A stretch of 10,458 nucleotides of DNA, taken from a virus. Lineage: Duplodnaviria > Heunggongvirae > Uroviricota > Caudoviricetes. The notes beneath the pieces were generated by a model. It worked only from the letters and a program-made list of their open reading frames with translations, was not told where the DNA came from and ran no database searches. Each line of letters opens with the position of its first letter. Position 1 is the first letter of the stretch. A program made the position numbers and the translations under genes. The DNA lies in IMG/VR virus record IMGVR_UViG_2585427789_000026. One strand, written 5' to 3'. Shown here one piece after another: positions 1 to 10,458 of the stretch.

Positions 1-1167
1 TCAGGCCTTATGGTGGAAATAATCACTCAGGCGAGAAAACATGCTGCCTTCCCCGACAGATTCCAGGGTAACCAGCGGCCAGTGCGCCACCTGTTTATCA
101 CGGTCGTAAAGTTCAATTTCCCCTACCCGCTGATGGGCGCTAATTGGCGCGGTGAGCTCTTTACCATTAAGGGTATATTTGGCTTTGATATGTGGAATTT
201 CGGCTTTCGGTAGCACCATCCAGAACTCTTGTTCCGTTCCCAGGGCGATATTTTCTTTATCACCATACCAGATGCGTTCCGTACCGACCTTTTTCCTACG
301 GTGCAAAATTTGCACCGTAGTAAAGTTTTGTTGCCCCCAACGCAGTAATTTTTTTGCCTCTTCCTCACGACCTTTTGCGCTGTCAGCACCCATTACCACT
401 GCAATGAGGCGACGCTGCCCGTCTACAGCCGAAGCAATAAGATTAAACCCGGCACCAGAAGTATGGCCCGTTTTCAGGCCGTCAACATTCATGGTCTTAT
501 CCCACAATAACCCGTTACGGTTTTGCTGGGTGATACCGTTCCAGGTGAGGCTTTTCTCACTGTACATATGATAAAACTCGGGCTCGCCGTGGATGATAGC
601 GCGAGAAAGCACGGCTAAATCATAAGCCGAGCTATGCTGGCCAGGTGCATCCAGACCATGCACTGTTTCAAAATGCGTATCCTTGAGATGCAGCTTCTCG
701 GCATAGTTGTTCATCATTTCAACAAACTGCCGTTGCCCACCGGCAATATAGTCAGCCAGAGCAACACACGCGTCATTTCCGGAATCCACAATTAAACCTC
801 GGCTTAAATCACGTACCGATACGCGATCGCCCTCTTTCAAAAACATCAGTGAAGAACCGACAAACACCGGATTATCTTTCGCCCACGCATCACGCCCCAC
901 GGTGACAATATCGTCTGGCGTAATGCGATGACTATCGATAGCGCGATCCACGACATAGCCCGTCATCAGCTTTGTCAGGCTGGCGGGATTGCGCTGTTGA
1001 TGCTCATTACCCGCGGTGAGAATCTGACCGGTGGTGTAATCCATCAATACCCAGGACCCGGCATGAATCTCTGGAGGCTGAGGTGAAAAAGGAATGTTTT
1101 CCGCCGCAAAACCAGACGATAAATTAAAAACGAACAAAGAAGCAGCAATAATAAGACGGCGTTTCAA
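1..1167 (-). CDS. dacD: D-alanyl-D-alanine carboxypeptidase DacD (penicillin-binding protein 6b)
   Basis: Complement ORF with stop at 1-3; translation carries the serine-PBP motifs SLTK (SxxK), SGN and KTG and matches E. coli DacD as recalled. The ORF track extends to a TTG at 1171-1173; the recalled 388-aa protein (MKRRLIIAAS...) starts at the TTG at 1165-1167. Confidence 0.92.
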   Translation of the reverse strand: MKRRLIIAASLFVFNLSSGFAAENIPFSPQPPEIHAGSWVLMDYTTGQILTAGNEHQQRNPASLTKLMTGYVVDRAIDSHRITPDDIVTVGRDAWAKDNPVFVGSSLMFLKEGDRVSVRDLSRGLIVDSGNDACVALADYIAGGQRQFVEMMNNYAEKLHLKDTHFETVHGLDAPGQHSSAYDLAVLSRAIIHGEPEFYHMYSEKSLTWNGITQQNRNGLLWDKTMNVDGLKTGHTSGAGFNLIASAVDGQRRLIAVVMGADSAKGREEEAKKLLRWGQQNFTTVQILHRRKKVGTERIWYGDKENIALGTEQEFWMVLPKAEIPHIKAKYTLNGKELTAPISAHQRVGEIELYDRDKQVAHWPLVTLESVGEGSMFSRLSDYFHHKA

Positions 1168-1375
1168 CAGCAAACCCTCAGGTGTTTCAAATAGCTGTTC
1201 TTTTTACGGAAATACTTATGAACTGGCTGGAATAAAGTGCAAGAAAATGTGACTACTACCTCATTTTTATCTGACATGATCTGTTGCCACTCGCTGCCAA
1301 ATTGTCGCGCTAAAGCTGATTAGCACGGTGATATTTGATACTCTGGCAGACAGCAGAAATAACGGATTTAACCTA

Positions 1376-1438
1376 ATGATGAATGACGGTAAGCAACAAT
1401 CTACCTTTTTGTTTCACGATTACGCGCAACACCCCTGA
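1376..1438 (+). pseudogene. sbcB: Exonuclease I (sbcB) 5' remnant: first 16 codons, then divergent sequence and stop
   Basis: ATGATGAATGACGGTAAGCAACAATCTACCTTTTTGTTTCACGATTAC encodes MMNDGKQQSTFLFHDY, the recalled N-terminus of E. coli ExoI, at the expected distance and divergent orientation from dacD. After about nt 1424 the frame reads AQHP-stop instead of ETFGTHPALD. Confidence 0.6.
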
Positions 1439-1478
1439 GAACCGCCATGAACAAGGGTTTCATGATTTGTGATTTTAG

Positions 1479-1502
1479 TTTGGTACGCAATTTGGTACAC
1501 AA
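1479..1502. repeat. Tandem 12-bp direct repeat TTTGGTAC(G/A)CAA x2 in non-coding junction region
   Basis: Seen directly: tttggtacgcaa (1479-1490) followed immediately by tttggtacacaa (1491-1502), 11 of 12 identical. No credible ORF on either strand across 1439-1907. Confidence 0.5.
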
Positions 1503-1907
1503 CACAATTTTCACTTCAGCGGGTAGTCATCAAACTCACCATAACGAGCATCGTTGATGATGTATGTGATCACCACAAATATCACATCTGGACTAGTTCC
1601 GTCTTCATGCGCAGGTATCTGTTCACGCCTCCCTTTCTGCAAATCCTAAAGATGAGATTTTGGGGTTTTGGGATATCTTTTTATCCTCAGTTCTCTATCC
1701 ATTCTACAAAGCAGTAATGAACCATCACCGTGTGATAGTGAGGCATCCGCTACGTTAAGCGCAGAGAAATGATGCAGTGGTGGTCGGACTGGATTGATGA
1801 AAAGGTGTAGCAACCAACATTGCTATATCTCAGATAGCACAAAGCCTTGCAATCCAGTGCAAAGCTTTGTGTGTCTCAGTTTTGTCTCATAGGTAACTCT
1901 GTGTTAA

Positions 1908-2195
1908 CTACGATGCAAGAATCCATACCAATAAGCATCCGATAATTGGGAAAGAAAAATCCATCAGGCTTGCCACATCCCATGCACGCGGATCAAAACC
2001 GCCCCACCACGGCATGTTAATCCGCTTGCCATGCCCGAACATTTCAATCCAGCGATATTCTGCCTGGGTGTGTTCACGAGCAATGAAGAACGTACAACCG
2101 GCTATCGCACCGTAAGCCCAGTTTCCGGTAAAAAGACCAACCAGTACCTGTGCGACCACAGCGCAAAGTGCGTGATGAATTGGGGTTTTATCCAT
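1908..2195 (-). CDS. Hypothetical small membrane protein (95 aa, two hydrophobic segments), joined stop-to-start to tailspike
   Basis: ORF with ATG at 2193-2195 directly abutting the tailspike TAG stop (2196-2198), giving TAGATG on the coding strand. Two hydrophobic stretches (ALCAVVAQVLVGLFTGNWAYGAIAGCTFFIA and LMDFSFPIIGCLLVWILAS). No family recognised. Confidence 0.55.
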   Translation of the reverse strand: MDKTPIHHALCAVVAQVLVGLFTGNWAYGAIAGCTFFIAREHTQAEYRWIEMFGHGKRINMPWWGGFDPRAWDVASLMDFSFPIIGCLLVWILAS

Positions 2196-4781
2196 CTACT
2201 CTATCTCTTTTGCTTTTTTAATTATCAATTCAAGCTCTGTTAAACGAGACTCAATGCGTTCACACCTTCTTCGCTGGAATGCAGCCTCCAACCACAAACA
2301 TTCATCTGGACGCAATCCCCAACGCTCACCAGCATGTACAACCAGTTCCGTGTCACCAGTATCGTATTCTTCAAAGTATTCGTGAACGATGTCTTCTCCT
2401 TCAGGGGATTTAGCTATAAATGACACCTTGCGCTGTGCCATTACAGGTTGGTACTCATCATCCCATTTATCATGACATAGCAAGCCAAATCTTGTTCCAT
2501 CTATCCCCTTTGCAAGAAACGCATCTCTTACCTGCTGTGCAATTGCTCCGAAATGCCAACGAGCAGTATCCGAACCTTTAGCCTTAATATCGGACAACCA
2601 CTGGTAAACGATAATATTTACGTCACCCCATGCGTCAAGAATTGCATCCTGATCCACCTCCATGATTTCTGAAAGTTGCTCTACTGTCAGTGGCTTTGTT
2701 TTCAATGTCTGGTCTGAAGTATTTATTGCCCCATTAGTTGCATATACTTGCGTCCACCGTTTAGATGATGTCCCACATGATGACGTATTATCTTTATTAG
2801 CACTTATATAGCCATTAACCTCCGCTGACTGACCGATATACGAATATGAAGATGTTGATAAGGGAGATTTAAATATCCATTGAGCATTGGTAAAGTCATA
2901 AATACCGGTATCACCTTTTTCACTAACATGAAAAGTTACATTCCGTAACGTATTCTTTGCATCATAACGGGCGGCTTGTGTTGTTGCCCTCGAAACAGTG
3001 AATCCTTTGTCATCAAGGTTTGCCTGCTCTATGACTTCACCACCAGGCATAATTTTACCAAGGCTTAACAAACCAGAGTTAGTGACAATATCATGGGTTG
3101 AATCAATGATAATACCAGGCTGATTTCTTGATGTTGTTTTTACATGCATTACCTGTTGTGGCATTAATGTGTAAAATGTAGTTTCTCGCCCACTATCACC
3201 ATCTGGTATGCCATTTGTATTCCCCATTACAAGGTCATACCCACCTGCAATCATACGGAAAAACATTGCTTCTGGTTCATATGTAAGATTGCTAACATCT
3301 GGCGTTCCGGTATCATTTGGATCTGCTATTTCATAGGCTCTTCCTGCACCTGCCTGTATTTGCTGCACCCCAAGATAAACACCATCAAGTGTGTACTGAT
3401 GCAAATATTTTCTGGTTGAAGAATATGCAGATCCAGCCTGACAAAAATAAATAGCAGTACCGTCACACGCAACTGTTTGCATATCCCTCACAAAATCGGC
3501 AATTTCAAATTCAAAAGTTGCTTCATTACGATAATCGTAATTGTACGCCTGCGGGTTAATAAATTTGCTGGTATCAAATACTTTTACATAATAGCGAATT
3601 TGATCTGGTGTTGATGGGCTCTCACCAGGGCCAACATAACGTTTTGCTGTAGTAATCAGCCATCGACTCATAGGGTCGGTGCATAAAACATTTACCTGAT
3701 TCTCGTAACCATCTTCCCATATGAGAAAAAACTCTGGTTCAATTTCACCACCATCAGTAGGGGTGAATCTGGTGATATACTTTGCGCGATCCTCTCCTTT
3801 AGCTGTGCCAGCTAACCCCCATATCTGTAACTGGCCTCTTGTGTTACGAAAACCAACGCGCCCTATGGTTAAACCAAGACATTGATGTCCTAATTCTCTA
3901 CTACCTTTAGTCTCCCAAAGAGGAGTTAACTCTTCATTCCCAAACCAATTATAAGCAACAACTTTATTAACTTCGTCACCAGAACTAACGCTGCCACTCA
4001 CATTTACCAAGCAATAAAGAACACTGTCATAATAATCAAGAACAGCACCCTGTATGACAGTATTTTTAATTGTTGCCAGTCGCAACCCTGACTTAACATG
4101 ATTAGGAGTAGAAGGTCTGAAACCTGTATACATCCCCTTTTTTATAGTTTGTATTCTTTTTTCAGTAAAATCAGCATCTGGCAGTAATCGATTCTCTGTG
4201 CGAAAATAGCCATTTATATACTTATTTCCATCAAAAACTTGATCTGTTATATATGTATTACCCCTTAGATCAACAATCCTTCCTGTGATTTGTTTTTCTA
4301 ACTCTTGAAAAGATAATGTGTCATCGGTGATGCCATCACCTTTTGCTCCCCATCCGCGAGGGTCAGCGTCATCACGCCACCGAGACATCTGCAATTCATG
4401 ATATTTTTTAGCACCTTCCGGGTCTTCTAATTGTTGTCTTAATTGGTCAGGATCGTACTTAAGCACATTCGGAAAATAGAACTGCTGCGTACCATATGCA
4501 TCGTAAACAGCCATAGAATGGCCTTGCACGGTAACGAATTTGGAAATCTGTCCGTTGTATACCGGGTATCCAGCAGCATTGATAACGATTGGCTGTGGCA
4601 CCTGAACATAAGTACCATCTTCTCGTTCCAGATATACTGGAATCTGGTTTTCTGGATTTACCGGATCTGTGTCAATCTTACCGATATAAATTTTTCCATT
4701 TGCTACGGTTTTAAAAGAGCTAGCCATTGTGAAGAGTTGCGATGGCATCCCAATTACAACATTTGGGGTTATATCAGGCAT
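2196..4781 (-). CDS. Phage tailspike: P22-type N-terminal head-binding domain, pectate-lyase-like beta-helix central domain, C-terminal intramolecular chaperone (peptidase S74-like) domain
   Basis: N-terminus [17 protein letters not shown]...[27 protein letters not shown]...[15 protein letters not shown]...NVLKYDPDQ aligns closely with the P22 gp9 / HK620 head-binding domain as recalled. Central [12 protein letters not shown] motif is typical of pectate-lyase-superfamily depolymerases. C-terminal ~173 aa begins SDQTLK (Ser codon 2715-2717), fitting the S-x4-K self-cleavage signature of tail-fibre chaperone domains. Start chosen at ATG 4779-4781 (AGGA 8 nt upstream); the ORF-track start at 4874 has no ribosome-binding site. 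Confidence 0.85.
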
Positions 4782-5197
4782 ATTAGTCATCCTGTTTGAA
4801 GATTTAGATATTGAAGAAAACGGAATGACTGCAGACAAAGATGCAATTGTTTTGAAAAATAACCTTCTATTCATTTAAAAACCATGCAACATGAACAAAA
4901 CGATTATTTTACAATACTCAAGAATCTTGATCAACAGGCATATTATTTATGCGCTTAATGCGTCACTTACAAAAATAAAAACAAGTAATACCTTTATTCC
5001 TATCGTCCATGATTTTTATTTTCAAACATTATTAAATAACAATTCCTATTTATAATATCTGTCATTTAATTTGCTCCAGATACAAGGAATCGCCGCAGCA
5101 TGGCTACGGTGAGCATTTGTTACATACCGAAACGGTACGATTGTTGATTTGTACAGTAGGTTTTACGATGCCATTCCACCCATTTGGTGAGGCATTG

Positions 5198-5455
5198 ATG
5201 ATGTACAGCAAATACGATGAGGCGCAGTTCCACTTGAGGCTTACGCACGAGTTGCACGCTAAGATTAAGCAGCGTGCAAAAATGAATAACAGGTCTATCA
5301 ATTCCGAAATTGTGGCTACGATGGAAGAATCACTCTCCAAACCATCACCTGTAAGCGGGTATCGTGATGAAGAAGAGAGGCTGGACTCATTAATCTCGGA
5401 ACGAGTAAAAGAAGTTGCGGCTGATATCCTTAGAAAAGAAAAAACCCGCGATTAA
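5198..5455 (+). CDS. mnt: Mnt-like ribbon-helix-helix repressor
   Basis: Translation MMYSKYDEAQFHLRLTHELHAKIKQRAKMNNRSINSEIVATMEESLSKPSPVSGYRDEEERL... aligns along its length with P22 Mnt as recalled (…FNFRMP…GRSMNSE…SKPSPVTGYRNDAERL…). GGTGAGG lies 5 nt upstream of the ATG at 5198; a second ATG follows at 5201. Confidence 0.8.
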   Translation: MMYSKYDEAQFHLRLTHELHAKIKQRAKMNNRSINSEIVATMEESLSKPSPVSGYRDEEERLDSLISERVKEVAADILRKEKTRD

Positions 5456-5463
5456 GCGGGTTT
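5442..5463. terminator. Bidirectional intrinsic terminator between convergent mnt and the antirepressor operon
   Basis: Perfect 8-bp stem aaacccgc / gcgggttt with 6-nt loop gattaa, flanked by an A-run upstream (a U-tract for the minus-strand transcript) and ttt on the plus strand. It overlaps the mnt stop codon and lies 7 bp from the stop of the 73-aa ORF. Confidence 0.55.
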
Positions 5464-5469
5464 AGTTGG

Positions 5470-5691
5470 TTAGTTATCAAAAAGTCCGTACGTTTCTTCT
5501 TCTTCAGGTGTAAGGGGAAGAATCTCTACTCTATCTATAGATACCTTTTCAATGTACCCATGAGGCCTACTTAAAATTAAAGCTCTCTCATGCCACAGAA
5601 CTCCAAGAATGTGATACCTTCCAGCATCGCCTTTTACCCTGGCTCTTCCTTTGATTCTTGGCGGCATAATGCCATATTTTTTCTTTGCCAT
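5470..5691 (-). CDS. Hypothetical 73-aa protein (basic N-terminus, acidic C-terminus), translationally coupled to the upstream antirepressor
   Basis: Its ATG (5689-5691) overlaps the TAA stop of the upstream gene (5691-5693) as TAATG; it ends just before the bidirectional terminator. No family recognised. Confidence 0.5.
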   Translation of the reverse strand: MAKKKYGIMPPRIKGRARVKGDAGRYHILGVLWHERALILSRPHGYIEKVSIDRVEILPLTPEEEETYGLFDN

Positions 5692-6416
5692 TATGCAACA
5701 TTACTCCCATGAATAAGGTGTTGTAGTGCTTTAACACCTTCCTCATTGTAGCGGAACGCTTCCACCTGTTTGCTGGAATGCGCAGATTTATCCAGGAAGA
5801 ACTTCCCGTACTGCTCAGTTTTGAGGTTGTTTGCGTTAGCAATGCGACCAATCTTGTTGGCCGTTACTCCAAGCTGCTCTGCAACCTCCCCTGCTGAGTA
5901 GTAATGCTCTTCTATTGCCGGAAGAGGTATTGCATTAAAACCAACGAGCGGGTTGATTATACTTGCTGCCGCTGTCTGCTTTGCCTCCGGCGCAAGATTT
6001 GGCATCAGATCGAACAGATTGGTAACAGCTTCAACCGTCATTTTCAATGTTCGCGCTTGACGATACTCAACAAGTCCACTCGCTGATTTACCGCTTTTAA
6101 TGTGCGCTTCCTGCATACTTTCAAGTTTGTCTACAAGTGTTCGGCGAACTGCTTTAGATTCGCGAGCAGCAACACGAAGCGCCTGCTTGATAGTCATGGA
6201 GATAACATCAATGTCAGCCCCGTTTTTCCGACCTACACTTTTTGTGTAGGTCTCGCCTTCCAATTCATCCTCAATTTTCTCGATGAATTTGTTGTTACGT
6301 ACTGATGGCTCTCCACATAACTTGCGAGCTTCATTAACCATCATCAGAAGACTTTGGCTGTCAATGGTTTTATCCGTGACAACGGATCCGATGTTTGCTA
6401 CATTCTTAAAAGTCAT
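5691..6416 (-). CDS. Phage antirepressor / regulatory protein, Rha-like N-terminus with KilA-C (ANT) C-terminal domain
   Basis: C-terminal YYSAGEVAEQLGVTANKIGRIANANNLKTEQYGKFF...FRYNEEGVKAL fits the KilA-C antirepressor domain pattern; N-terminal ...DSQSLLMMVNEARKL...VRNNKFIEKIE resembles Rha/ORF6N. Start chosen at ATG 6414-6416 (MTFKN..., AAGGA about 7 nt upstream) rather than the ORF-track TTG at 6503. Confidence 0.65.
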   Translation of the reverse strand: MTFKNVANIGSVVTDKTIDSQSLLMMVNEARKLCGEPSVRNNKFIEKIEDELEGETYTKSVGRKNGADIDVISMTIKQALRVAARESKAVRRTLVDKLESMQEAHIKSGKSASGLVEYRQARTLKMTVEAVTNLFDLMPNLAPEAKQTAAASIINPLVGFNAIPLPAIEEHYYSAGEVAEQLGVTANKIGRIANANNLKTEQYGKFFLDKSAHSSKQVEAFRYNEEGVKALQHLIHGSNVA

Positions 6417-6485
6417 TAGGCATTCCTTATGTGGTAGTAAGGGTGTGACATAGGCCGCCAGCAGCACACTGGCGGTTTTCTTTTG
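6411..6485 (+). ncRNA. Putative sar-like antisense RNA covering the start codon and ribosome-binding site of the Rha/KilA-C antirepressor
   Basis: Candidate promoter GTGACA (6376-6381), 17-bp spacer, TACATT (6399-6404) would start transcription near 6411 and end at the terminator above, about 70 nt. The geometry mirrors the P22 sar antisense RNA in the arc-ant region. Confidence 0.35.
6454..6485 (+). terminator. Plus-strand intrinsic terminator in the intercistronic region between the two antirepressor genes
   Basis: Stem ccgccag (6455-6461) / ctggcgg (6469-6475), 7-nt loop, followed on the plus strand by ttttcttttg (6476-6485). The minus-strand side has no U-tract. Confidence 0.55.
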
Positions 6486-6503
6486 CGCAGTCCGGCGCAC
6501 CAA

Positions 6504-7142
6504 TCAATGAATCCATTCCTCGCCGCGAAGTTTTGCCAGCATTGGCTGAGCGTTCTTTACGACAAAATTGTTGGTATCAAGATTCTTCATTTCACGAAGA
6601 AGTGATTTCTTGGTTTCTTCTGACATGTAGCGAGTCTCATATGCAATATCGTAAATCCTTCCTGAAAGCTCAGAACCAATTTGCTTCATTCCTGGGTAGA
6701 TGTGTTTGCACATTTGTTGACTCTTCTCCATCCACAATTGTAAGTAGCAGAGATTAACCAGCTCTTCGTCAGTGAACTGTTTTGCAATCGGTGAGCATTC
6801 TGCCTGCCGATCCAAAATATCCAGCACCCAGCGGCGGAACTCTTTGGCCTTGGGCGTAGAAGCAAACATCGCCACCAAGTGAGCGCCTCGGAGTGAGTAA
6901 ACTCTGACCGATTTGTTACGTAAGCTATTGTTTATTCCGTTGACCTTCATATTGAGGGTCAATGACATTGAGTCGGAAAATTCGTCAGCATTACGGGCAT
7001 AAATTTGGCTGATGGCATCAGTTTTTTTATAGCCGAGAGCCTTAGCTAGTTCGGTGGAGGTAAACCAGATAGACCCGCCCTCTGTTACAGGGTTAAAAGT
7101 GAATCCTTGGAAGTTATAATCTGATTTTGCTACAATATTCAT
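6504..7142 (-). CDS. Phage antirepressor with Bro-N / AntA-type N-terminal domain
   Basis: N-terminal ...FQGFTFNPVTEGGSIWFTSTELAKALGY...VYSLRGAHLVAMFASTPKAKEFRRWVLDILD matches the Bro-N / antirepressor N-domain pattern. Start chosen at ATG 7140-7142 (MNIVAKSDYNFQ, AAGGAAA 6 nt upstream), downstream of the arc stop; the ORF-track start at 7247 overlaps arc. Confidence 0.65.
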   Translation of the reverse strand: MNIVAKSDYNFQGFTFNPVTEGGSIWFTSTELAKALGYKKTDAISQIYARNADEFSDSMSLTLNMKVNGINNSLRNKSVRVYSLRGAHLVAMFASTPKAKEFRRWVLDILDRQAECSPIAKQFTDEELVNLCYLQLWMEKSQQMCKHIYPGMKQIGSELSGRIYDIAYETRYMSEETKKSLLREMKNLDTNNFVVKNAQPMLAKLRGEEWIH

Positions 7143-7220
7143 GTTAGTTTCCTTGAGTACGGTTACTGACATAGAGGCCCGGTTTGTGTTCGCGCACTGC
7201 CGGGCTTCACTATTTTTATT
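7143..7220 (+). ncRNA. Putative second sar-like antisense RNA covering the ribosome-binding site of the Bro-N antirepressor
   Basis: Candidate promoter TTGGAA (7107-7112), 18-bp spacer, TACAAT (7131-7136) would start transcription at about 7143, beside the Bro-N start codon, and run about 70 nt to the hairpin and T-tract at 7174-7220. Same geometry as the 6411-6485 unit. Confidence 0.3.
7174..7220 (+). terminator. Plus-strand terminator-like hairpin with T-rich tail at the arc 3' end, upstream of the Bro-N gene
   Basis: GC stem gcccgg (7177-7182) / ccgggc (7200-7205) with extension, followed on the plus strand by ttcactatttttatt. The minus-strand side has no U-tract. Confidence 0.4.
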
Positions 7221-7389
7221 GGATGACAACATCGCCCTTTGCCTCAAGTTTCATTAATAACTCCATTCGATAAGCTATCTCTGCCTGAATTGACCTATGG
7301 CATCTTTTTGCTGATTCGCGGATATGTGAATCAACCTTTTCTGTAAAACGAACCTGACGCGGCTTGATGGAAGATATCTTTTCAGTCAT
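7216..7389 (-). CDS. arc: Arc-like ribbon-helix-helix repressor (57 aa; not in the supplied ORF track)
   Basis: Hand translation of the complement strand: MTEKISSIKPRQVRFTEKVDSHIRESAKRCHRSIQAEIAYRMELLMKLEAKGDVVIQ-stop. It aligns with P22 Arc as recalled (…PQFNLRWPREVLDLVRKVAEENGRSVNSEIYQRVMESF…). AGGAG lies 6 nt upstream of the ATG at 7387-7389. Confidence 0.7.
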   Translation of the reverse strand: MTEKISSIKPRQVRFTEKVDSHIRESAKRCHRSIQAEIAYRMELLMKLEAKGDVVIQ

Positions 7390-7435
7390 TATGCACTCCT
7401 GTTTTTGAAAAACTCATAATCTCACTTTTTGTAGT

Positions 7436-7467
7436 TTGATTATTCACTCACACTCAGTATGAGTCAA
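7436..7467. promoter_or_regulatory. Overlapping divergent promoters with candidate operator (palindrome ACTCA-gta-TGAGT plus ACTCA repeats) between arc and the CI-like gene
   Basis: Minus strand: TTGACT (complement of 7462-7467), 17 bp, AATAAT (complement of 7439-7444), reading into arc. Plus strand: TTGATT (7436-7441), about 16 bp, TATGAG, a weaker promoter reading into the CI-like gene. The 13-bp palindrome at 7452-7464 overlaps both; further ACTCA half-sites at 7412 and 7445. Confidence 0.4.
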
Positions 7468-7488
7468 TGAATTTTTTATGGTGAACTA

Positions 7489-8130
7489 ATGAATTTTGAC
7501 GATCAATTCCCATCAAGAGTATCTCTGGCAAGACAGTCCAGGGGTATGACGCAGGCGCAGTTGTCAAAATTAGCTGGTGTTGTTCAACGTCAAATAGCTG
7601 CATACGAGGGTGGTGAGGCTAAACCACGGCTTCGGGTATTGCAGGCATTAGCCAACGCATTAGGTACTACGGCTGAGTGGTTAGCTCTAGGTGAAGGTCA
7701 GGGTCCGGGAACAAAAAACGTCATGCCTGACGTTCTGGTAAAGCAAATACCAATTCTCAAACTAGATGAAGTTATGCATTACCTAAACACAGGTGAACAT
7801 TCATCGTCTAGATTTCATCCTGCAATATACAATGTTGGTGACTCTGCATTTGCATTGACTATTGAAGGTGAAGCTATGACTACAAGTTCAGGTATTAGCT
7901 TTCCCAGAGGATCGGTTGTCACGTTCAGCCCTCTAGTAAAAGCTAAAAGCAAAGATTATGTAATAGCATCATTGGATAAAGAGCAAATATTGAGCTTCAA
8001 ACAGGTTTACATTGGTGAAATAGAGACAAACCTAGTATCCCTAAACCCAATGTATCCTAATATTCTTGTTAGAAATGAAGATGTTAGTATTTTGGCAACC
8101 GCAGTTTACCTTGAAATCCCGTTGCTTTGA
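7489..8130 (+). CDS. CI-like repressor (XRE-type HTH plus LexA/S24-like C-terminal domain) with catalytic Ser and cleavage site replaced
   Basis: N-terminal HTH (…GMTQAQLSKLAGVVQRQIAAYEGG…); C-terminal GDSAFALTIEGEAM…SFPRG…LSFKQV…LNPMYP aligns with lambda CI GDSAFWLEVEGNSM…SFPDG…FTFKKL…LNPQYP. The G-x-S-M nucleophile position reads Ala (GCT 7873-7875) and the Ala-Gly scissile position reads Asp-Glu. Confidence 0.8.
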   Translation: MNFDDQFPSRVSLARQSRGMTQAQLSKLAGVVQRQIAAYEGGEAKPRLRVLQALANALGTTAEWLALGEGQGPGTKNVMPDVLVKQIPILKLDEVMHYLNTGEHSSSRFHPAIYNVGDSAFALTIEGEAMTTSSGISFPRGSVVTFSPLVKAKSKDYVIASLDKEQILSFKQVYIGEIETNLVSLNPMYPNILVRNEDVSILATAVYLEIPLL

Positions 8131-8396: not shown

Positions 8397-8931
8397 TCAC
8401 TGCTGTGTTGCCTCAGTGGCAAGCAGCGGTCTGATGGCATTTGCAGCGTTACTTAATGCTCTTTCATAGGCTGGCGTTCCTGCTTTGGTGTTTGCCAGAC
8501 GTAAGAGCGCATTCCTGGCCATAGGGCTTTCATAAACCCTCGACATAAGGCCAATCCCTGTTTCCCCAGCCAATAGCGCGCCTCCGGTTTTTAGGTTACC
8601 AATAACCCTTACCAAAGGCGCGAGTGTCATGCCAGTCTTCGTCACAACATTAGCCTCAGATGCTCTTTTGGTAGCATCGAGAATAGATAACATCCCCTCT
8701 ATCTCTTTTCCGTTCTTCCCACCAAATACAGTTTTAAACACCTGACCATTTGCTTGTTTTTGCAGCTTGCCAAGCTCGGTCATCATTTTCTGAGGGCTGT
8801 CACCTACCTTGTCAGCTATTTTGCTGATATATGCCGCCCTTAGCATGTCTTTACCTTTTTGATCGAGTTTCCCGTACAATCGAGCTATATCTGACCCATA
8901 TTGTCCATACACAATGGTATTTACAGCCTCG
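8397..8931 (-). pseudogene. 3' fragment of a phage late gene (putative DNA-ejection / internal virion protein, gp16-like by position), truncated by IS66 insertion
   Basis: The reading frame stays open upstream of the listed GTG (8912) straight into the IS66 end, with no convincing ribosome-binding site. The protein is low-complexity and Ala/Gly/Lys-rich. The gp16 assignment rests only on position relative to P22 gene order. Confidence 0.4.
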
Positions 8932-10458
8932 GTAAGCGGCTCGCCAGAACCGTATTGATATTTACTGAGAGGTCAGATCAACTTTCCAGGGCAACAGATC
9001 GCGTACCCGGTTTGCCGGCCAATCCTGGATATGCTCAATGACGTAACGCAGCCATTTTTCTGGTTCCACATTGTTCAGACGGCATGTGCCGATCAGCGAG
9101 TACAACACCGCCGCATGTTCGCCACCGCTGTCGGAACCCGCGAACAGCCAGTTTTTCCGGCCTACGGCCACTCCCCGTAAGGCGTTCTCTGCGATGTTGT
9201 TGTCGATTTCCACCCAGCCATTACTGCAGTACACGTTCAGGCCATCCCACTGTTTCAGCAGGTATGCGAACGCTTTTGCCGTATCCGAGTGACGCGACAG
9301 TGTTTTCATCTGAGTCTGTATCCAGTCATACAGTGACTGCATCAGTGGCGCGGCTCTGGCTTTTCTTGCCGCCAGACGCTGTTCTGCTGAACATCCCCGG
9401 ACTTCTGCCTCGATGGCATACAGTTCACCGATACGCTGCAGGGCTTCCGTGGTGATGTCGGTGGGCACTCTTGCATGCACATCGTGGATTTTTCTCCGGG
9501 CATGAGCCATACACGCGGCTTCCGTTATTCTGCCGGATTCGTATAACACCCGGTAACCACCGTAAGCATCGGCCTGAAGCACACCGCTGTAACCGGCCAG
9601 ATGATTTTGTGGATGGATACCTTTCCGGTCCGGTGAGTACGCGAACCAGACCGCCGGGGGCATTTCCGAACCGGCGTTACGGTCATCACGGACGTAGACC
9701 CACAGCCGGGCGGTCCGGGTTTTACCGCTGCCCGGCTCCTGGACCGGGACGGGGATATCATCAGCATGGACTTTACCGGGCATCAGCACATACTGGCGCA
9801 GGACGTCATACAGCGGCTCCAGCAGTTCAGCAACGGCACCTGTCCAGCGCCCCAGCGTGGCGCGGCTCAGCTCCACGCCCTGGCGACGGTATATTTCTGA
9901 CTGGCGGTATAACGGCAGATGGTCTGCATATTTCCCGGTAACAACATGGGCCAGAAGCCCCGCTCCGGCATAACTGCGTGCAATGGGTTTTGAAGGTACT
10001 GTTGCCTGCACGATATGGTCGCACCGACAACAGGCCAGTTTCGGACGTTGTGTTTCGATAACCTTAAAGGCGCTGCTGATAAGCTCCAGTTGCTCTGACA
10101 CATCACACCCCAGAGGACTGAGGTCACCACCACAGGCCGGGCAGCATTCCTCTTCCGGCCGGATGACCCGGGTTTCACGGGGAAGTGAGGCCGGTAACGG
10201 TTTACGGGCTGAAGACTGGCGCAGGGCGGATGGCAGTACCGGGTCATATTGCTCACCCAGCGTTTCCGCCATTTCTTCCTGAAGTGCGCTGATTCGCTCC
10301 TGTGCTTCCTGTATCTGCCGTTCGGTTTTAGCGCGAAGTTTTTCTGAGCTTTTACCGAACTGCATGCGCTGCAGTTTCGCAACCAGCGCCTTCAGCCGGT
10401 TGATTTCGGAAGCATAAGCCGCCACCCGCTGTGAGAGCAGGCGGTTGTATTTCGCCAT
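8932..10458 (-). mobile_element. IS66-family insertion sequence, right end, continuing beyond the window
   Basis: GC-rich block beginning GTAAGCGGC at 8932, consistent with the GTAA terminus typical of IS66-family inverted repeats as recalled, 30 bp from the transposase stop. Sharp composition change from the AT-rich phage sequence. Confidence 0.75.
8962..10458 (-). CDS. tnpC: IS66-family transposase (TnpC/orf3), N-terminally truncated by the window edge
   Basis: 498-aa ORF ending ...[11 protein letters not shown], with leucine-zipper-like N-region, CxxC...CxC zinc motif (CPACGG...CCRCDH) and a conserved catalytic core. The M at 10458 corresponds to an internal position in full-length IS66 TnpC as recalled, so the true start lies outside the window. 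Confidence 0.9.

Follow-up and report, generated by a model that had tools for sequence, protein, structure and literature searches.

A predicted small membrane protein gene abutting the tailspike gene of a decayed P22-like prophage belongs to a conserved family that accompanies receptor-binding-protein genes

In phage P22, the slot between the tailspike gene and attP/int is occupied by gtrABC, three genes of recognised Pfam families that lie on the opposite strand, in convergent orientation, with a promoter and a terminator of their own. The same slot in Sf6, between the tailspike gene and attP/int, holds oac. Both are accessory and dispensable for virion formation. Oac-type O-antigen acetyltransferases carry an Acyltransferase_3 domain and have about 330 aa and about 10 transmembrane (TM) segments; very small membrane peptides such as Iap of phage D3 and OpvA of Salmonella can also affect O-antigen synthesis. 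Llp of T5 and Cor of phi80, N15 and HK022 are small envelope exclusion proteins that are encoded beside the gene for the receptor-binding protein (RBP) and co-inherited with it; both are lipoproteins of the outer membrane, vary together with the RBP and mask a single specific receptor, FhuA. Small helical proteins of the inner membrane that block DNA entry include P22 SieA, T4 Imm and HK97 gp15, the last of which is the product of a moron in the tail operon. The late region of T7 has gene 17.5 directly behind the tail fibre gene; it encodes a small membrane protein, a one-TM, class II-like holin of the lysis/packaging block. Class I holins have three TM segments, an N-out/C-in topology and a highly charged C-terminal tail, and their genes adjoin the endolysin gene.

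The locus described here lies in a stretch of 10,458 nucleotides (the window) consisting of E. coli chromosome with a decayed P22-like prophage beside dacD, the host gene for a D-Ala-D-Ala carboxypeptidase (1-1173, minus strand). Most of the prophage genes are lost, and the remaining DNA includes an immI-like region, fragments of DNA-transfer genes and IS elements. Because prophage-free E. coli match the window over 1100-1424 and no further, the prophage-host junction was placed at approximately 1424/1425, in the dacD-sbcB intergenic region. The segment spanning the junction and the prophage end (1100-1950) is matched over at least 80% in 490 of 5426 complete E. coli genomes, at least some of which bear other tailspikes (e.g. 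ZH063).

The tailspike gene occupies 2196-4781 on the minus strand. The longest ORF reaches 4874, but the true start is likely at 4781, which PGAP annotates for the identical region and where the P22-type head-binding domain (4443-4781, E 4.5e-61) also starts. The central receptor-binding part carries an endosialidase N-terminal extension, and the core of a Peptidase_S74 intramolecular chaperone (2517-2717) forms part of the C-terminal region. Directly after the tailspike stop codon (TAG, 2196-2198), the ATG at 2193-2195 opens an intact frame of 95 codons on the same strand that ends at window position 1908 (ORF95, 1908-2195), so that zero intergenic bases separate the two genes at the TAG-ATG junction (2193-2198). 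The first-pass annotation had described a 95-aa ORF starting in this way, and its coordinates and junction are correct. Scanning the window revealed neither a terminator nor a promoter between the tailspike gene and ORF95, and upstream of the ORF95 ATG there is only a weak purine-rich stretch, AAAGAGATAGAG. As no such element separates them in the window, we infer that ORF95 is co-expressed with the tailspike.

ORF95 had also been proposed to be the last gene before the prophage-host junction. No intact prophage gene follows it, yet the junction lies about 480 bp further on, and the prophage DNA in between contains a decayed, prophage-derived umuD/humD-like (S24 peptidase) pseudogene (1511-1813, minus strand) and a hairpin (1838-1871). 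Intact umuDC-like genes are found downstream of a homologue of ORF95 in a Comamonas prophage (L007 8248-9795). The hairpin begins 36 nt past the ORF95 stop codon and has a 14-bp stem, perfect with one G.U pair, and a 6-nt loop; its fold z-score is -3.3 and it is without a U-run. It is common to prophages with and without ORF95, and similar copies occur near int/att in lambdoid loci. The hairpin may be the end of the late transcript or a sib/tI-like retroregulator. Weak RYYYAAC- and GTTRRRY-like motifs around it raised the idea of integron-cassette-like mobility, which was dropped because prophages without ORF95 share that hairpin.

Comparison with a P22-like prophage of the ST131 type (ZH063), inserted at the same dacD site, delimits the segment that varies. 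The two prophages share the flanks 1-1873 (96.7% identity) and 4352-5112 (84%) and differ in the segment 1874-4351 (minus strand), which contains the receptor-binding part of the tailspike, the S74 domain and ORF95; ORF95 is thus absent from an otherwise homologous prophage. The onset of nucleotide homology coincides with the ORF95 ATG (window 2192-2201) in 12 comparisons between phages. The GC content of ORF95 is 49.7% (GC3 0.49), compared to 39-43% (GC3 0.31) for the tailspike gene. Present or absent as a unit and unlike the tailspike gene in base composition, ORF95 behaves as mobile accessory cargo, a discrete module carried behind RBP genes. Decayed copies exist in HC6-like phages, as a remnant after an S74 fibre, and at another locus (L010), which has an internal stop; the gene is therefore dispensable. 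The HC6 fibre itself (Escherichia phage HC6, L163 2355-5093) has 859 aa and an S74 end that closely resembles that of the window tailspike, and the frameshifted remnant after it corresponds to the 46-aa family phrog_34165. In the window, ORF95 is intact, and the surrounding region 1200-5500 recurs at 100% identity in eight genomes. The gene is real and maintained by selection; it is no chance ORF.

Profile searches assign ORF95 to phrog_1443, an already catalogued but uncharacterised family, with an E-value of 9.7e-55 and an alignment of residues 1-94 to positions 1-94 of the 97 in the profile. A set of 5.8 billion proteins contains 569 homologues, and the family has 440 representatives at 50% identity; each is about 90-110 aa long and stands alone. 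A comparison of 41 different alleles of the E. coli type gave a median dN/dS of 0.13 overall and 0.036 for the core codons 34-73, so that purifying selection on the family is strong. No variation was seen at E41, W72 or P83 among 69 diverse members, in more than 90% of which H8, R40, Q44, A45 and E46 are each conserved as well; the invariant residues are retained in four proteobacterial classes, and the window protein holds the full set (H8, R40, E41, Q44, A45, E46, W72 and P83). The sequence of helix 3 appeared to follow phage type, with mostly FSFPIIGC in P22-like copies and VPVVAC in lambdoid ones, a pattern compatible with simple lineage structure.

Searches for a relative of known function by sequence, profile or fold yielded none. 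Sequence and profile searches of Pfam, NCBIfam, PADLOC and the PDB with ORF95 gave zero matches, and the fold comparison returned nothing informative. When the 69 members were scanned against Pfam at lenient E-values, the only recurrent weak hits were to the N-terminal TM hairpin of PhoR (9 of 69 members, best E 0.0032), which we read as a generic hairpin resemblance rather than homology; one of the 69 members matched Phage_holin_8 (E 0.0036). The hhalign probabilities were 0.3% for P22 SieA, 0.15% for P22 GtrA and 0.14% for the P22 gp13 holin. A literature search by accession and family identifiers returned nothing relevant to the family, and the gene is unmentioned in the Tai tail-assembly-interference paper and in the LF82 CRISPRi preprint.

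The hydropathy profile of ORF95 contains two hydrophobic stretches, at about residues 7-39 and 74-94, in agreement with the two-segment membrane protein described in the first-pass annotation. The AlphaFold2 model (mean pLDDT 90.6) resolves three helices, 4-23, 26-52 and 74-94, and since it splits the first hydrophobic stretch into helices 4-23 and 26-52, this stretch is modelled as a helical hairpin. Across the family, the mean number of K+R residues is 5.3 in loop 2, between helices 2 and 3, compared to 0.07 in loop 1, between helices 1 and 2, and 0.58 in the C-terminal tail. By the positive-inside rule, this charge bias places the N-terminus and the conserved loop in the cytoplasm and leaves hardly any part of the protein in the periplasm, with only a turn of 2-3 residues and a short tail predicted to be exposed there. 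The protein is thus predicted to be N-in and C-out with the invariant motif on the cytoplasmic side, a topology whose two bases are the positive-inside rule and the AlphaFold2 model. Helices 1 and 2 are short, with about 16 and 14 apolar residues, and the C-terminal tails of the family often contain one to three basic residues; given these features, the orientation in the membrane may be the reverse. ORF95 contains no lipobox and no charged C-terminal tail, and it has a long invariant loop.

The family is present in 2068 of 5426 complete E. coli genomes (38%), with a median of 2 copies. Phage copies lie on the same strand as RBP genes and directly 3' of them, irrespective of RBP type, in podo-, sipho- and myoviruses of Alpha-, Beta-, Gamma- and Deltaproteobacteria. 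At 16 loci, homologues that are 82-99% identical follow P22-like tailspikes of five unrelated receptor-binding types, with junctions that abut, overlap or leave a gap of 62 or 220 bp. At 73 loci, the upstream genes encode a lambdoid side tail fibre and a 92-aa acidic protein. Elsewhere the homologue is preceded by P2-like fibre genes, with its start overlapping or abutting (Aeromonas, Leclercia), by a tail-fibre assembly gene (Halomonas phage phiHAP-1), by the gene for a GpJ-like tip (Comamonas) or by that for an S74-ending tailspike that it abuts exactly as in the window (Desulfovibrio). It also lies beside a fibre gene in Aeromonas jumbo phages, whose copies are intact. Two DGR loci, of Comamonas nitrativorans and Pigmentiphaga humi (L121 and L122, 4785-8051), have the order mtd-like target gene, ORF95 homologue, avd, RT. 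Tight coupling to a virion gene, which the first-pass annotation had regarded as unusual, is the rule in this family and not an oddity. The annotation had further suggested a check of conservation beside homologous tailspikes, and ORF95 does accompany the same tailspike in other prophages. A specific tie to the S74 chaperone domain was considered, as the gene abuts S74-ending fibres in four unrelated phages, and was dropped as a general rule, since the RBPs of most carriers are of other types.

Two further gene associations were seen at these loci. The 92-aa acidic, cytoplasmic protein belongs to phrog_1361 and is always encoded between the lambdoid side tail fibre and the homologue (L002 4710-4988, and throughout the 73 loci); the upstream fibre has a phrog_1419 C-terminal domain, and the phrog_1361 protein is a candidate fibre chaperone. 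In Comamonas prophages and an Aeromonas phage (L007 6300-7521, L109 6491-8036 and L005 2049-3496), genes for a phrog_3108 protein with a 'GLQESR' SLT-like motif, a holin-like protein and an Rz-like protein resemble an unannotated lysis cassette beside the homologue.

Members of the family in Sphingomonadales are chromosomal. They occur in the ligA operon in a conserved DLH-ligA-ORF arrangement, in which the ORF start overlaps the ligA stop or follows it within a few bases (L165-L167 and L171-L173), and no phage genes were found near these ligA-linked members. In other sphingomonads, the family member follows sdhA, pnp or the DAHP synthase gene.

Compared to the described systems, ORF95 shares with P22 gtrABC the slot between tailspike and att, as had been noted earlier, and with both gtrABC and Sf6 oac an accessory character, being dispensable for virion formation. 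The resemblance does not extend to gene content or arrangement. Whereas gtrABC is a set of three genes, convergent and self-promoted, ORF95 encodes a single 95-aa protein, is co-directional with the tailspike gene and abuts its stop codon; neither a GtrA-like four-TM protein nor a GtrB GT2 transferase nor a GtrC unit is found at ORF95, and its 95 aa, three helices and lack of a Pfam match differ from an Oac-type enzyme. The best positional analogy is with T5 Llp and Cor; however, ORF95 has no lipobox, is predicted to reside in the inner membrane and does not co-vary with RBP type. Receptor-independent action at the inner membrane, of the type of SieA, Imm and gp15, would fit this independence of RBP type, but the hhalign probability with SieA is negligible, PADLOC has no match and, unlike these proteins, the family has chromosomal members in a housekeeping operon. 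With lambdoid morons such as lom and bor (Juhala/Hendrix), ORF95 shares a deviating GC content and a present/absent polymorphism, and it resembles a moron in being an extra gene of deviating base composition in part of a group of homologous phages. In the window, where ORF95 starts directly after the tailspike stop codon, scans gave no promoter or terminator specific to it. T7 gene 17.5 shares its position after a fibre gene but belongs to the lysis/packaging block, whereas carriers of ORF95 have separate, complete lysis cassettes. ORF95 also differs from class I holins in its uncharged tail, its predicted N-in/C-out topology and its distance from the lysis cassette of E. coli phages, although homologues in Comamonas and Aeromonas phages do lie next to holin-like genes.

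Expression data exist for three homologues in lysogens of E. coli LF82. Between the tailspike gene of the Gally prophage and the homologue, GALLYPH_17, lie a strong intrinsic terminator, a promoter-like site and a Shine-Dalgarno sequence (AAGGAG), an arrangement that is moron-like in its flanking terminator and own promoter-like site and in expression without the late operon. RNA-seq shows that the three homologues are at background in LB and that two are induced in macrophages (PMC9928086). GALLYPH_17 has a log2 value of about 4.1 in LB, the prophage background, and of 8.0-8.7 in macrophages, an induction of about 20-fold; in samples B1 and B6, taken to be bacteria grown without macrophages, its value is 6-7 (PMC9928086). 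In all conditions except LB it exceeds the tailspike gene, while the remaining late operon is silent (PMC9928086). PERCE_24 (Perceval) rises from about 3.5 in LB to about 6 in macrophages, whereas TRITO_22 (Tritos) is flat, at 2.8-3.8 in LB and 3.2-3.8 in macrophages, and is induced in no condition (PMC9928086). The authors listed no morons of Gally in LB (PMC9928086), and the homologues do not rise above the prophage background in that medium.

At present, ORF95 ranks as an ordinary hypothetical gene, accessory and moron-like, at the end of a prophage where the tail fibre is encoded. The reading that we favour, with a probability of roughly 0.5, is that it encodes a phage-carried modulator of a conserved inner-membrane process, and we commit to its being neither a part of the virion nor an O-antigen-modifying enzyme. 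Here, the late operon would supply such a protein along with the tailspike, with a probable further contribution of read-through from the immI region. It would adopt an N-in topology with a short helical hairpin, a conserved amphipathic helix and loop facing the cytoplasm (REHTQAEYRWI...R.NMPWWGGF..R.W), a third helix and an outside C-terminus. The invariant polar set H8, R40/E41, Q44, E46 and W72, together with D79 and P83 in helix 3, may then form one site at the inner-leaflet interface. A single conserved site of this kind would imply a target conserved from Sphingomonas to E. coli and not a strain-specific surface receptor; candidates would be a protein of the inner membrane and a lipid or carrier of its inner leaflet. 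The modulator would condition the cell late in infection; copies with a promoter of their own, like that of Gally, would in addition condition the lysogen under host-associated conditions. Among the possible actions, we rank envelope physiology above exclusion at the DNA-entry step, and the latter above lysis timing. A factor of membrane or envelope physiology borrowed from cells is possible, if doubtful when taken by itself, prevention of phage DNA entry at the inner membrane is unlikely, and anything else within this reading is improbable. Silence in LB lysogens, unlike classical Sie genes, which are expressed in lysogens, and the SieA hhalign value speak against exclusion. For the modulator reading in general, a target unrelated to adsorption leaves the constant position at RBP genes unexplained, and the absence of TRITO_22 induction everywhere and the decay of some copies also count against it. 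This constant position would be accounted for if the family were a new, very small membrane-embedded enzyme or regulator, coupled to RBP genes for an unrecognised step of host recognition or exit, with one His/Arg/Glu/Gln/Glu/Trp inner-leaflet site used by cells and by phages of all three tailed morphotypes; examples would be a receptor-independent refractoriness to entry or a conditioning of the envelope for release. We regard this joint proposal as tentative and rather unlikely.

The remaining explanations were weighed against the same observations. The first-pass annotation had suggested a lysogenic-conversion or receptor-modifying factor, which would alter the O-antigen, the capsule or another receptor of this tailspike and thereby protect the lysogen or keep progeny off debris. 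The shared P22 gtrABC interval, the nature of ORF95 as cargo of differing GC, its conservation beside the same tailspike in other strains, and the macrophage-induced Gally homologue with its own promoter-like site all agree with this proposal, and Iap and OpvA are precedents of very small size. Against it, the family is independent of tailspike or fibre type, is without similarity to GtrA or any Pfam glycosyl- or acyl-transferase family, and has a predicted topology that offers the periplasm almost nothing; the chromosomal homologues next to ligA, the silence of the three LF82 homologues in LB lysogens (PMC9928086) and the co-directional fusion to the tailspike gene, opposed to the self-promoted gtrABC, point the same way. 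We therefore consider modification of the O-antigen or receptor highly improbable. What survives of the suggestion is that ORF95 is accessory cargo, with deviating GC and absence from ZH063, and it may have a broader conversion role as an accessory gene that alters the lysogen.

A late lysis-related membrane protein, either holin- or antiholin-like or a regulator of lysis timing at the end of the late operon, has more in its favour and is still distinctly unlikely. The T7 holin gene 17.5 likewise follows a tail fibre gene, and ORF95 resembles class I holins in size and three-helix layout. Genes for holin-like membrane proteins directly follow the homologue in Comamonas and Pantoea prophages, in Comamonas with genes for a phrog_3108 SLT-like protein and an Rz-like protein next in line, and the homologue of Aeromonas phage 62AhydR11PP is preceded by genes for a phrog_3108 protein and a two-TM protein; the single Phage_holin_8 match and the intact copies of Aeromonas jumbo phages can be added. 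Against this, Gally-type E. coli carriers have a complete canonical cassette of holin, endolysin and spanin elsewhere, and their homologue stays with the RBP gene. The long invariant loop and the missing charged tail are unlike holins, the hhalign value for P22 gp13 is minimal, a holin would hardly be expected as a stable chromosomal gene of the ligA operon, and the Gally copy is expressed in macrophages without lysis. The least credible explanation is a functionless remnant that hitch-hikes beside an often-exchanged RBP cassette. Such a remnant would suit a badly decayed prophage with an IS insertion, most genes lost and an adjoining pseudogene, as well as the decayed copies in HC6-like phages and L010 and the breakpoints at the ORF95 ATG, which fit a recombination flank. 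It is difficult to reconcile with a core dN/dS of 0.036, with residues invariant over four proteobacterial classes, with an ORF95 that is intact within a region identical in eight genomes, and with the regulated expression of some copies.

No surprising mechanism is demonstrated by these comparisons; a coupling to RBP genes that holds over phage morphotypes and bacterial classes, enzyme-like conservation and high prevalence make ORF95 a reasonable experimental target. RBP genes are the phage genes exchanged fastest, and few small genes next to them are as well conserved as this family. If ORF95 does affect entry, lysis or envelope physiology, it would bear on host-range engineering by swaps of tailspike or fibre cassettes, because it travels with these cassettes, and would likewise be relevant to prophage-mediated resistance and to the annotation of thousands of genomes.

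The immI-like region of the window (5117-8130) contains an Arc-family gene (5201-5455, plus strand), two antirepressor-like genes (5691-6503 and 6504-7247, minus strand) and a gene for a 213-aa protein (7489-8130, plus strand) annotated only as 'helix-turn-helix domain-containing protein', which may, in our impression, be a LexA/CI-like repressor with an S24 domain. Beyond it, a truncated DNA-transfer (P22 gp16-like) fragment (8397-8912, minus strand) adjoins an IS66-family transposase ORF (8962-10458, minus strand) that runs to the window end. In strain E100341, which is 100% identical over 1200-5500, the sole stretch compared, the DNA-transfer gene is intact and an IS3 element is present elsewhere.
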